This document shows positions 5,567 to 24,902 of a stretch of DNA of 31,754 nucleotides, in pieces. How positions within the stretch are numbered: the stretch's first letter is position 1; every line of letters starts with the position of its first letter. A program made the translations under genes and the position numbers. The notes below the pieces were generated by a model. It saw nothing but the letters and a program-made list of their open reading frames with translations, had not been told where the DNA came from and did no database searches. This DNA comes from a virus (lineage: Duplodnaviria; Heunggongvirae; Uroviricota; Caudoviricetes), in the IMG/VR virus record IMGVR_UViG_3300037313_000650; one strand, given 5' to 3'.

Positions 5567-6061
5567 ATGAAAAAGTTTAGAAATCCTTATTTAGTACAAC
5601 GTTTATTAGCACCTACAAGAGTTGATAATCCTTTCTCCTTTGGTGGTGGAAGGATAGATGGTGGATTTAGTGAAGAAGGAATGACTGTATTAAAACCTAT
5701 ATTTTCTTTTGATTATATGGGCAGTGCTGAATTTGAATGGGGTGCAGTACCTGAAGCATTTCAGAAATTATATGAAGCTGATCTAATAGATGGATTTATT
5801 ACAATTGATAATATTGGTACAGTATGGTATATCTGCGCTAAAGATATAGCTGAAGATGTAATAAAGTGGATAGTGACTGCTATGAATGGAAAGGAAGGCT
5901 ATTTAAAAGAGCGTTTAGGTTTACGTGGTGCTTTAACAGGAGATAGATACGATCAAAAATACAAGGGTTGGATTGAACTGGACAATCCATTCATGTTCTT
6001 TACAGACTTTAATATGTTCCAGAAAACATGGCAGATATTTAGTAAAGAGCCAGCAAAATAA
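5567..6061 (+). CDS. conserved phage protein (FDYMGSAEFEWGA motif)
   Basis: 164 aa; motif recalled from uncharacterised phage proteins. Confidence 0.85.
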   Translation: MKKFRNPYLVQRLLAPTRVDNPFSFGGGRIDGGFSEEGMTVLKPIFSFDYMGSAEFEWGAVPEAFQKLYEADLIDGFITIDNIGTVWYICAKDIAEDVIKWIVTAMNGKEGYLKERLGLRGALTGDRYDQKYKGWIELDNPFMFFTDFNMFQKTWQIFSKEPAK

Positions 6062-6081
6062 CTAAGCCGGACGATTAAGTT

Positions 6082-6109
6082 AAGGGCGGTGTTTCTACAC
6101 TGCCCTTTT
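6082..6109 (+). terminator. intrinsic terminator
   Basis: aagggcggtgt-ttct-acactgccctt then TT. Confidence 0.75.
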
Positions 6110-6208
6110 GATTTCACTCTACTTGGAGAGTATAAATAGGTGTTAAGCCAAGTGCGTTGGTATATATATTATGTATATATATCAGATCACATTAAAAACT
6201 TTATTATC

Positions 6209-10709: not shown

Positions 10710-11441
10710 ATGCAGAAGCTAGTACAAGTGGTTATGCTTCCCACTGAAAAAACAGGTGTGGTAGGTTTAATAAATCTAGGAACTCAACTAATTCTTTTAA
10801 AAAACCCACCTTATCAAAAGAATATTGATAGGAGTATTGCAGCAGGAACCATTAAGCCTCAATACTTGTATTTTACTATTGATGAAGAGATAAAGGGAGA
10901 TGATTGGTGTTTGTATCAAGATGAAGAGGACATATTTATTGGACGAATGGGTATTGCTCCAAAGGAAGCACCGTTGCTTACTAATGATGAAGGAACCTTT
11001 CTTGTATGTGATGAAGACAGTAAGAATCTCAAGAAGATAGTAGCTACTACTAATCCTGATTTGTGGATAACTAAGAAGTTTTCACACTATAGTCAGGATT
11101 TAATGAAGGTAGCAGTATATAAGGATGTGTCTACAGGTATTGCTAAAATCCCCACCGACTTCATAGAAGCCTATGTACGTGAACAAGGGAAGATAACAGA
11201 GGTAATGTTGGAGTATGAGTATTCCAGAGAAGGATTTCCTTATACTCCTGTATTCTGTTCTCCAGAGCGACTCAAACTTCGTAGCAATGGTGAAGTTATC
11301 TGGTCTCCTGTAAAGGAACGCAGTTTTACCTATTCTGAAGTTATAGATATACTTAGAGGGTTTGATTCTTATGTTAGTAGGGAAATAGGTATTGCTATTC
11401 CTGATGGCGGTTCTTGGTTTATTAAAAATTATCCTCAATGA
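10710..11441 (+). CDS. Bacteroidota-phage hypothetical protein (KIVATT...IPTDFIEAYV...VMLEYE family)
   Basis: 243 aa; motif pattern recalled from uncharacterised Bacteroidota phage proteins. Confidence 0.85.
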   Translation: MQKLVQVVMLPTEKTGVVGLINLGTQLILLKNPPYQKNIDRSIAAGTIKPQYLYFTIDEEIKGDDWCLYQDEEDIFIGRMGIAPKEAPLLTNDEGTFLVCDEDSKNLKKIVATTNPDLWITKKFSHYSQDLMKVAVYKDVSTGIAKIPTDFIEAYVREQGKITEVMLEYEYSREGFPYTPVFCSPERLKLRSNGEVIWSPVKERSFTYSEVIDILRGFDSYVSREIGIAIPDGGSWFIKNYPQ

Positions 11442-12033: not shown

Positions 12034-12276
12034 ATGAATACATTTTTAAGTATAATAGGTGTAGGTGCTTTAATTTGGTTAGTATTTGCATTTACTAAAT
12101 ACAAAGGTGAAAAGATTCAAGAACATTTAGAACGTGCATACTTTGAAGGTCAAAAAGATGCTTTACAGGGAGATATTAGAATCAAAAGGAACAATGATTC
12201 TTGTTGGATATGGATTAAATCTCCTTGGAATAGCGGAGAAGAACCTATCTTTGTCCCTAATAAAGTATGTCAATAA
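12034..12276 (+). CDS. membrane-anchored hypothetical protein
   Basis: N-terminal TM segment; AYFEGQKDAL...WIKSPW. Confidence 0.8.
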   Translation: MNTFLSIIGVGALIWLVFAFTKYKGEKIQEHLERAYFEGQKDALQGDIRIKRNNDSCWIWIKSPWNSGEEPIFVPNKVCQ

Positions 12277-12290
12277 TATATTTAAATTAT

Positions 12291-12481
12291 TACAGCAGCT
12301 ATCTGTAGGACAACGTATGCAGGTGAAAACCCTGCTTACTTATGTGACAACCTGTTAGGGAATACGACCCACCGCTACTGTGGGTGTCTAAACAGATGTA
12401 GTCAATCGTCTGTCGTCAGGATGATGGGGTAGCCATTCCCTCAAGGACGTAAAAAGTGACTACCGTAGCGGGGCTGCTGTA
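12291..12481 (+). ncRNA. candidate structured ncRNA 1 (pseudoknotted, T-loop-like hairpin)
   Basis: ORF-free and GC-rich; 9-bp terminal helix tacagcagc/gctgctgta; gcagg-TGAAAAC-cctgc; acccac-cgctact-gtgggt whose loop pairs with gtagcg (12465-12470); gtagtca/tgactac helix. Confidence 0.7.
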
Positions 12482-12489
12482 TATCTTAT

Positions 12490-12677
12490 TTAAATCTGCT
12501 CAGAGTAATCAAATAGCAAGGGGTTGTGTCTTGAAAGATAGACTGCCTTTGCAGCTATGACCAATAGCGTTGTTTGATGAAAAGAGATAGAGACTAGGGC
12601 AGATGGTGGAAATACCATGCAGTCATCCTTGTGAGGCTTCCCTAGCTACTATTCCCTTTGGTCAGGGACAGGTTTAA
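12490..12677 (+). ncRNA. candidate structured ncRNA 2 (kissing loop)
   Basis: Terminal helix ttaaatctg/caggtttaa; atcaaata/tgtttgat; ctaggg/ccctag; loop TGACCAA (12558-12564) complementary to loop TTGGTCA (12658-12664). Confidence 0.7.
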
Positions 12678-12704
12678 TTTTTTCATATTCAGTTAGTTTT
12701 GGTC

Positions 12705-12733
12705 CCTCTGATATTTCTATATCGGAGGTTTTT
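12705..12733 (+). terminator. intrinsic terminator after the ncRNA pair
   Basis: cctctgatat-ttct-atatcggagg-ttttt. Confidence 0.8.
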
Positions 12734-12758
12734 ATTTACTTTTAAACTAAAATAAATC

Positions 12759-12929
12759 ATGAAAACCTTTGTTAAAATAATTCTGTTTATAATAATGTAT
12801 ATTATAAATATACCAAACTTTATAATATTAATATGGATTGGTATATGGAGAATGAATTTTAAAGATGTAAATCAATTTTCTGAAAACTTGGCTGATTCTA
12901 TTTGTAACTCTTTAAATCTATTAATATGA
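12759..12929 (+). CDS. small membrane protein (56 aa)
   Basis: Read manually: MKTFVKIILFIIMYIINIPNFIILIWIGIW...; ATGA overlap with next gene. Confidence 0.6.
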   Translation: MKTFVKIILFIIMYIINIPNFIILIWIGIWRMNFKDVNQFSENLADSICNSLNLLI

Positions 12930-23554: not shown

Positions 23555-24052
23555 GGGGGTGTAAGGAATTGATTCACAGTAATAGGTAAATACACAGGTA
23601 AGAGTATCTAGTCCTCGCAATGCTAGGTAATAATAAATGCAGAAACTGAGCTTTCTGATATGACTTTCGATAGCTTAATGGCTTTCGTAGGTGCTGAAAA
23701 AGTAGCTGCTTAGTAGCCCTACTATTCAGTGGAGATGTAGCTAAGGCTTTTCCTCCCTTGGGGTTTGATTTAACCTTGCAACAGAATAAATCAGTAGAGG
23801 GACTCCCTTAACAGTTAAGGCTGACCTTAAGCACTCTACTTAAAATACTATTGTATATAGGGGGTGAAGCAATAGAAACCAGAGGGGAAACTGTAAAGTC
23901 ACCGGGATTGTTGTAAGTATATGTCCAAATGATAACAGAACTTTCAAAACTACGGTGCAGGTATTAAATATTAGTTTAATATCAGTACTAAACCTGTAAG
24001 TGCGTATTTATTGTATTCTGGAGAAGACAGGGCTTCGATGCCCTCACCTCCA
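23555..24052 (+). ncRNA. ssrA: tmRNA
   Basis: Acceptor stem GGGGGTG/CACCTCC-A with G3:U Ala determinant; GGAATTGA after the 5' stem; helix 2 (taaatac/gtattta, acaggt/acctgt); ACTAAACCTGTA; T-arm agggc-ttcgat-gccct; resume context AATAAAT-GCA; tag ORF 23639-23713 AETELSDMTFDSLMAFVGAEKVAA*. Confidence 0.95.
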
Positions 24053-24080
24053 CAATTTTTTCCTACACATCCACAAATAT

Positions 24081-24111
24081 TTTACTATATTTAGTATAGT
24101 TTGTATATTTG
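24081..24111 (+). promoter_or_regulatory. Bacteroidota-type promoter, probably leaderless endonuclease transcript
   Basis: TTTA-N19-TATATTTG ending 4 nt before the ATG at 24116. Confidence 0.55.
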
Positions 24112-24115
24112 TGGT

Positions 24116-24667
24116 ATGAAGAAATATAAATATAAGAGAAAGTTGGTAGAAATAGAATGTGATTATTGTGGGAACATTCATACCAAACCTGAGAGTGAAT
24201 ATAATAGGAATAAAATAAAAGGGAGAAAAAATTACTGTAGCAGAAGTTGCTGCGGTAAGGTAACAATTAAACAAAATATTCCTAAAGAGAGTATAGTATG
24301 GGAACATCTTAAAGGTATTAATAGAAGAGATAAATATACAGGATTTAGAGAGCATATAAGAAGAATTCATAATAGACATAAGAAAATTGAATTGACCTTA
24401 GATGATTTACTGGAGCAATGGAATAAGCAAAATGGTAAATGTATTTATAGTGGTGTAACTTTAACAAATCCTATTAGTACAAGAAATTATTATAATAATC
24501 CTATATGTACAGCTTCTTTAGACAGAGTTGATAGTTCAAAAGGTTATACTAAAGATAATATTCAATTCATAAGTTATTCTATGAATTATATGAAAAATAA
24601 CATGACTCATGAACAAACTATTGACTTGTGTAAAATAATTTGTAACTTTTGGGATAAAAAAGATTAA
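24116..24667 (+). CDS. freestanding HNH-superfamily (beta-beta-alpha-metal) homing endonuclease
   Basis: N-terminal CDYC...YCSRSC Zn finger; C-terminal QNGKCIYSG...SLDRVDSSKGYTKDNIQFISYSMNYMKN, the DRxD HNH variant. Confidence 0.8.
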   Translation: MKKYKYKRKLVEIECDYCGNIHTKPESEYNRNKIKGRKNYCSRSCCGKVTIKQNIPKESIVWEHLKGINRRDKYTGFREHIRRIHNRHKKIELTLDDLLEQWNKQNGKCIYSGVTLTNPISTRNYYNNPICTASLDRVDSSKGYTKDNIQFISYSMNYMKNNMTHEQTIDLCKIICNFWDKKD

Positions 24668-24675
24668 ATGATATA

Positions 24676-24830
24676 AAAATAGGAAGTGTGCCGTAGGTAT
24701 TATTAACGTTTATCGGGAAGCCTACAAGTGCTTAATATCCTTCCTATTTTAAATTATTAGGTATAGATGGTGTATGGAGTTTGATTAACCCACTATGGAA
24801 TGATTAGTAAACAGCCTCACACTATACCTA
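24676..24830. other. two adjacent long imperfect hairpins in an ORF-free gap
   Basis: aaaataggaag/cttcctatttt with inner gtaggt/gcctac; taggtatag/ctataccta with inner gtgt/acac and gttt/aaac. Confidence 0.55.
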
Positions 24831-24902
24831 AAGCTTATCAGATTTTGCCATTTGATAGCTAACCAGCCGCTTTAGTGCTGAAAATTCACATGAGAGAAAG
24901 TT

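Follow-up and report, generated by a model that had tools for sequence, protein, structure and literature searches.

The functions of the structured RNAs of large phages, among them ROOL, GOLLD, manA and the species I and II RNAs of T4, are a long-standing blank. ROOL and GOLLD are known to form cages (PMC12286853), and manA assembles into 8- to 60-mers via intermolecular kissing loops (10.64898/2026.07.01.735769). The T4 species I and II RNAs are both processed out of a single polycistronic precursor with a terminator at its end (PMC2330249), while raiA, an RNA that acts in trans, combines a fixed core with a variable periphery and has no known function (PMC12968392). A candidate non-coding RNA (ncRNA), here called RNA1, occupies positions 12291-12481 of a 31,754-nt stretch of the virus record IMGVR_UViG_3300037313_000650; the whole of this stretch is referred to below as the window. 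Comparison with a homolog leads to the verdict that RNA1 is a genuine structured RNA motif not covered by Rfam; it falls into the broad, known category of orphan phage ncRNAs, yet its architecture is its own.

Structure and conservation of RNA1

RNA1 consists of the following parts.

12291-12481, plus strand: RNA1, a 191-nt end-paired ncRNA candidate, identified from its fold, shuffled controls and the homolog L164:1108-1309
12291-12299 / 12473-12481, plus strand: P1, the 9-bp helix closing RNA1 (pair probability 0.67-1.0), invariant in the homolog
12301-12311, plus strand: 5' strand of P2a and P2b; P2a is 12301-12306/12392-12397 and P2b is 12308-12311/12386-12389, with a small internal loop between them
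12314-12366, plus strand: P3 (12314-12318/12362-12366) and peripheral arm A, including a T-loop-like hairpin at 12319-12335
12367-12385, plus strand: P4 hairpin with an invariant stem; the loop, 12373-12378, supplies one of the two pseudoknot strands
12398-12463, plus strand: P5 (12398-12404/12457-12463) and peripheral arm B, which is replaced in the homolog
12465-12470, plus strand: pseudoknot strand pairing with the P4 loop 12373-12378, with 6 pairs in both sequences

Every helix named in the initial annotation was found where it had been placed. The description of the segment as GC-rich and as starting shortly 3' of a stop codon also holds, with a G+C content of 49% against 33% for the genome and an 80-aa open reading frame (ORF) whose stop ends at 12276, 14 nt before RNA1. 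The segment was further said to be free of ORFs; each frame on both strands contains two to five stops, which rules out a coding role, but a 74-aa ORF with a GTG start (12134-12358) overlaps the 5' third. Structure beyond chance is indicated by a folding z of -2.5, with none of 200 shuffles as stable. Of 5000 dinucleotide shuffles, 12 had a 9-bp Watson-Crick helix joining the ends, 60 had a hairpin with a complement to its 6-nt loop, and none had both. The single-sequence minimum free energy structure differs from the proposed fold, and most of the inner helices have a pair probability of 0.3-0.5 only; the core fold, as read from the alignment, is fixed by the homolog and not by the energy model.

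The homolog was found on a JGI contig, L164, via relatives of the 243-aa ORF at 10710-11441, and is a full-length match to RNA1 (82 bits, E 3.5e-23). A Logan contig carries a copy identical to that of L164, so that there are only two distinct RNA1 sequences in all. In the alignment of the two, three blocks are conserved and two stretches have been replaced; the sequences agree in 81 of the 92 core columns, as against 40 of 81 aligned positions in the arms, which contain a further 47 gap columns. All of the 41 core pairs are standard in both sequences. Changes in the core amount to four pairs altered on both sides (two in P3 and two in P5) and two C-to-U changes opposite G; this covariation is not formally significant, being reached by 24 of 500 shuffles. 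When the pairing partners are slid by 1-3 columns, pairing falls to 20-48% and no double changes are found. Both single-side changes give G-U pairs, which favours the plus strand for RNA1; one turns a G-C pair into G-U among the 10 preserved pairs of P2a/P2b, and the other, in the P4 loop, leaves a G-U pair in the pseudoknot. In P3 the first three pairs are preserved, two of the changes there being compensatory, and everything beyond them is replaced, while all seven pairs of P5 are preserved, again with two compensatory changes.

The breakpoints between conserved and replaced sequence coincide with helix ends both in RNA1 and in a second RNA, RNA2, which lies directly downstream in the window. 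Helix-end breakpoints with compensatory changes there are, as far as the two sequences go, unexplained by ancestry alone, and the combination of a conserved core with replaced arms points to a real molecular job for RNA1. Alternatively, the segment might have no function as RNA, being a DNA-level element or a remnant whose blocks derive from recent recombination. The 243-aa gene at 10710-11441 (alleles P0070, P0071 and P0073) is a mosaic in which different allele pairs have different identical blocks, a sign of intragenic recombination among related phages, and such near-identical blocks next to RNA1, together with the single homolog, would suit this explanation. It is nevertheless very improbable, as the conserved blocks are the paired core strands of two independent RNAs, the compensatory changes and those that keep a pair as G-U point to one RNA strand, and there is no ORF.

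The core is arranged around two three-way junctions. The first (P1/P2/P5) has a single long strand, 12464-12472, whose pairing partner is the loop of P4; the second is formed by P2b, P3 and P4, and the variable arms are borne by P3 and P5. The initial annotation had described two domains, overlooking the core helices 12308-12311/12386-12389 and 12314-12318/12362-12366, which make its domain A the second three-way junction. The helices it named in domain A are present, but the T-loop hairpin is peripheral and exchangeable rather than part of the core; in domain B the closing helix is present and kept, while the two inner hairpins are not conserved and their pairing is ambiguous. The T-loop-like hairpin lies in arm A (domain A) in the window, and a similar hairpin is found in arm B (domain B) of L164. 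This placement in different arms marks the hairpin, on present evidence, as an accessory module and not the functional centre of RNA1. A second pseudoknot candidate, 12357-12363/12435-12441, falls in sequence that is replaced in the homolog.

The supported pseudoknot is of a type that ViennaRNA cannot predict, and its pairing may be intra- or intermolecular. If it forms between molecules, RNA1 could be an RNA-only assembly, building rings or cages like those of manA, ROOL and GOLLD that scaffold or enclose something in infection. The length of about 190 nt, the phage origin and the loop-strand complementarity resemble manA, and cage formation by phage RNAs has precedents in ROOL and GOLLD (PMC12286853). 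Such an assembly is nonetheless unlikely, since there is a single conserved loop-strand pair, with its partner strand inside a junction, and the exposed peripheral loops that would be needed as interfaces are not conserved.

Known families and further copies

The proposal of a structured, pseudoknotted RNA outside Rfam is supported by the homolog, which keeps the core pairs with compensatory changes, and by the lack of a family match. Rfam models gave low-scoring chance matches only in 12200-12800 at E up to 10; a gathering-threshold scan returned none at RNA1, and the L164 copy had none at E <= 1. The manA and raiA models, which the initial annotation had singled out, were run directly on the genome at E <= 10, and neither manA (RF01745, cut-off 55.2 bits) nor raiA (RF03072, cut-off 101.3 bits) had a match; as a control, the manA model scored the cyanophage P-SSM2 copy at 181.6 bits. 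The EGFOA model had no match on the genome, and the 6S and Y RNA models of Rfam had none at RNA1. The statement that RNA1 is not a transfer RNA (tRNA), transfer-messenger RNA (tmRNA), RNase P or signal recognition particle RNA agrees with the absence of an ARAGORN or Rfam model match. The viral single guide RNAs (10.64898/2026.06.01.729453) are a class built on a repeat:anti-repeat stem-loop that is not evident here, and RNA1 was not assigned to them; no model of the trans-activating CRISPR RNA was run.

RNA1 lies on the coding strand, 14 nt after a stop codon in the window and 6 nt after one in L164. This position would suit a ribozyme or an mRNA-processing or stabilising element that cuts or protects a polycistronic message right after the stop codon, as would the near-invariant pseudoknotted core with free arms, a combination typical of small ribozymes. 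Searches for known self-cleaving ribozymes revealed no Rfam match at E up to 10 and no hammerhead core motif. In addition, the 5' and 3' ends of RNA1 are paired together, whereas those of HDV-like (hepatitis delta virus-like) and theta ribozymes are not paired to each other. A role of this kind is accordingly rated as improbable.

Searches for further copies were extended to several collections. Neither the window copy nor the L164 copy had a blastn match among 50,697 cultured phage records, and pattern scans of IMG/VR, JGI metagenomes and GTDB genomes gave chance matches only, as judged by context and model score; the first metagenome pattern included the non-conserved T-loop and so was unable to detect the L164 homolog. 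No further copy turned up when about 55 related phage records besides L164 (five of them whole) and 151 Bacteroidota genomes were searched by DNA and by model, but distant relatives escape scans for exact matches and models derived from one or two sequences, and these blanks do not show absence. The contigs L047, L162, L165 and L233-L235, which carry relatives of genes next to RNA1, had no copy of it. The core motifs were absent from the main texts of the literature searched, a search that left the supplement of the phage RNA catalogue PMC10690425 (Fremin 2023) outside. Three weak model matches were dropped, one being inside an ORF (L040), one antisense to an ORF (L236) and one of 12 bits (E 0.48) without the pseudoknot strand (L198). 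An intergenic element on the minus strand of an unrelated viral contig (L209:1236-1405) is GC-rich, about 165 nt long and paired at its ends; it has a 15-mer in common with the 3' core of RNA1 but no loop partner, was matched by neither Rfam nor the model, and was likewise rejected as a copy. The closest whole relative compared, G001, has other orphan stem-closed RNAs near its tmRNA instead of RNA1. Judging from these searches, RNA1 looks like a lineage-restricted accessory module.

RNA2, the putative transcription unit and the source phage

Three features adjoining RNA1 may form a transcription unit with it.

12250-12284, plus strand: putative promoter-like element, with a -33-like TTTG at 12250-12253 and a -7-like box at 12277-12284, separated from RNA1 by 6 nt
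12490-12677, plus strand: RNA2, a second end-paired RNA that starts 8 nt after RNA1 and is probably co-transcribed with it
12705-12738, plus strand: terminator-like hairpin with a U tract, of the intrinsic type, closing the RNA1-RNA2 unit

The core of RNA2 contains a loop-E-like internal loop and a loop-loop kiss, 12559-12563/12659-12663. No Rfam match was found for it. Its homolog at about L164:5990-6201 has a fixed core, in which the 5-bp kiss is invariant, and replaced arms, as in RNA1. Sequence gives no support to RNA1 and RNA2 as paralogs: they show no similarity (p = 0.80) and have unrelated cores, and the claim that they have the same topology holds loosely only. In L164, RNA2 is located 4.7 kb from RNA1, so the two are separate modules.

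The two-box consensus upstream of RNA1 is that of a Bacteroidota sigma-type promoter. This pattern occurs three times on the plus strand of window positions 3301-31754 (shuffle mean 1.7), and two of the three occurrences immediately precede RNA1 and the tmRNA. At this spacing, no such box is present in the L164 homolog. A Bacteroidota-type promoter 5' of RNA1 is thus suggestive only, and because RNA1 of L164 begins 6 nt after a stop codon without promoter spacing, read-through followed by processing must also be allowed for.

The downstream contexts differ between the two phages, with RNA2 and the terminator in the window and a 66-aa ORF beginning 22 nt downstream in L164. Between the two RNAs of L164 (L164:2757-5982) are genes like those of nicotinamide adenine dinucleotide (NAD) salvage, for proteins resembling phosphoribosyl pyrophosphate synthetase and nicotinamide phosphoribosyltransferase; this pair presumably resembles the phage NAD reconstitution pathway NARP1. 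RNA1 might be a small-molecule aptamer, either a cis-acting orphan riboswitch or a free RNA that soaks up a nucleotide-derived immune signal as a sponge. The invariant junction nucleotides and the pseudoknot fit an aptamer, as do the close ORF and the NAD-salvage-like genes of L164. Yet there is no expression platform and no shared downstream gene, RNA1 of the window being followed by another RNA, and known riboswitches (cobalamin, FMN, SAM and others) gave no aptamer match in the window at E <= 10 or in L164 at E <= 1. An aptamer is hence assigned a low probability.

The virus record to which the window belongs is 164,315 bp long and has terminal repeats. Among cultured phages, the terminase is best matched, at about 26% identity, by those of the crAss-like group and of Flavobacterium, and a 711-aa protein has matches in Cellulophaga phages; on these grounds the phage, which is uncultured, is probably crAss-like with a host among the Bacteroidota. 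ARAGORN detected 24 tRNAs in its genome. RNA1 and RNA2 are set in an extended series of small ORFs that share one orientation, and the tRNAs are about 32 kb away. The sole Rfam match in the window is the tmRNA at 23555-24055, which is oversized (about 500 nt) and was missed by ARAGORN. It is followed by an endonuclease VII/HNH-like gene (24101-24667) and by two tandem stem-closed elements of about 77 nt, 24676-24752 and 24756-24834 (folding z -2.9 and -2.6). A short sequence motif common to 24837-24900 of the window and L050:6320-6400 of the relative G001 stands upstream of a strong hairpin and an ORF, has no Rfam match and is possibly a cis-regulatory RNA. The three orphan stem-closed RNAs around the tmRNA of G001 (L050:4765-4940, 5828-6020 and 6022-6143) have folding z of -3.2 to -4.3 and no Rfam match. 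The first 0.9 kb of the record (G000:C1:1-923) has 46-55% G+C against 33% overall and is possibly foreign or mis-assembled sequence.

Proposed function and relation to known RNAs

The explanation put forward here, tentatively but as a quite plausible one, is that RNA1 is a stable processed phage ncRNA acting in trans, the core of which may bind a host factor as a decoy. Transcription of RNA1 together with RNA2 would start at a host-type promoter or result from read-through, and would stop at the terminator at 12705; RNA1 would be trimmed in the AU-rich linkers, its paired ends resisting exonucleases. The compact core would then present a fixed surface to the host factor and sequester it, the likeliest candidates being proteins of RNA binding, translation or anti-phage defence, and the arms would only help folding and stability. 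Action in trans is favoured by the lack of a fixed downstream gene and by the separability of RNA1 and RNA2 by 4.7 kb. The same reading is favoured by the contrast between near-identical core and variable arms, with breakpoints at helix ends and 41 of 41 pairs kept; by the promoter motif common to RNA1 and the tmRNA; by the presence in the phage of 24 tRNAs, a tmRNA and further orphan hairpin RNAs; and by the occurrence of a core-fixed, periphery-variable design in the trans-acting raiA (PMC12968392). The co-transcribed species I and II RNAs of T4 (PMC2330249) are a further pointer to an RNA of this sort.

Several points weigh against a trans-acting decoy. The distinct sequences number only two and come from related phages, and the same two that support the structure were used to derive it; the homolog and covariation check proposed at the outset yielded one distinct homolog and four compensatory pairs, but not formal significance. 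A neighbouring gene has a 185-nt block 95% identical to L164, which shows that these phages exchange DNA, so part of the core identity may reflect recent ancestry or recombination. RNA1 would not be essential to the wider phage group, as it was not found in the related records and Bacteroidota genomes searched, and nothing in the sequences points to a particular partner. The decoy and its rivals are inseparable by sequence alone. A bolder extension, distinctly improbable, would make RNA1, with RNA2, the first of a class of RNA-only phage counter-defence molecules, in which the pseudoknotted core neutralises a host immune protein or nucleotide signal and the whole is a mobile cassette with freely exchanged arms, including the inter-domain T-loop.

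Should the core indeed bind a host immune factor or metabolite, host takeover by crAss-like phages would have a further, RNA-based route. Apart from this, RNA1 has a fold outside Rfam and is small enough for cryo-electron microscopy and probing. The comparison of the window with L164 amounts to a natural deletion analysis, marking about 90 core nucleotides and showing both arms to be exchangeable, and the T-loop hairpin, which occupies one domain in the window and another in L164 although the two cores are otherwise almost the same, provides an unusual natural example of RNA module shuffling.

In the cobalamin riboswitch, a T-loop hairpin is combined with a C-rich loop that pairs with a downstream G-rich strand. 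RNA1 also has both elements; however, it has no Rfam match, expression platform or cobalamin-related gene, and the position of its T-loop is not fixed. Compared by description, the T4 species I and II RNAs resemble RNA1 and RNA2 as a phage RNA pair in one unit ending at a terminator, but they lie in a tRNA cluster and RNA1 and RNA2 do not. ROOL and GOLLD are, like RNA1, ornate phage ncRNAs of unknown function with pseudoknots; they are several-fold larger and often near tRNA islands, and RNA1 has no Rfam match to them. The manA RNA (RF01745) is similar in size (about 190 nt), phage-borne and multi-junction with loop pairings, and RNA1 shows local sequence likeness to its P-SSM2 copy (shuffle p = 0.003). 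Membership on the strength of this likeness is ruled out, since the manA topology cannot be threaded, the manA pairing partner is absent and the stretch lies partly in the replaced arm of RNA1. In the manA consensus, the closing stem surrounds a long hairpin, a domain of three hairpins, a further hairpin domain and a final hairpin, in contrast to the two three-way junctions and junction-strand pseudoknot of the RNA1 core. Finally, raiA (RF03072) is about 200 nt long and resembles RNA1 in its conserved closing P1, compact pseudoknotted core and variable peripheral stems. It has two pseudoknots (PK1 and PK2) and is found mainly in Bacillota and Actinomycetota, whereas RNA1 has one supported pseudoknot and belongs to a crAss-like phage. 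RNA1 follows the design principle of raiA, a likeness and not membership.
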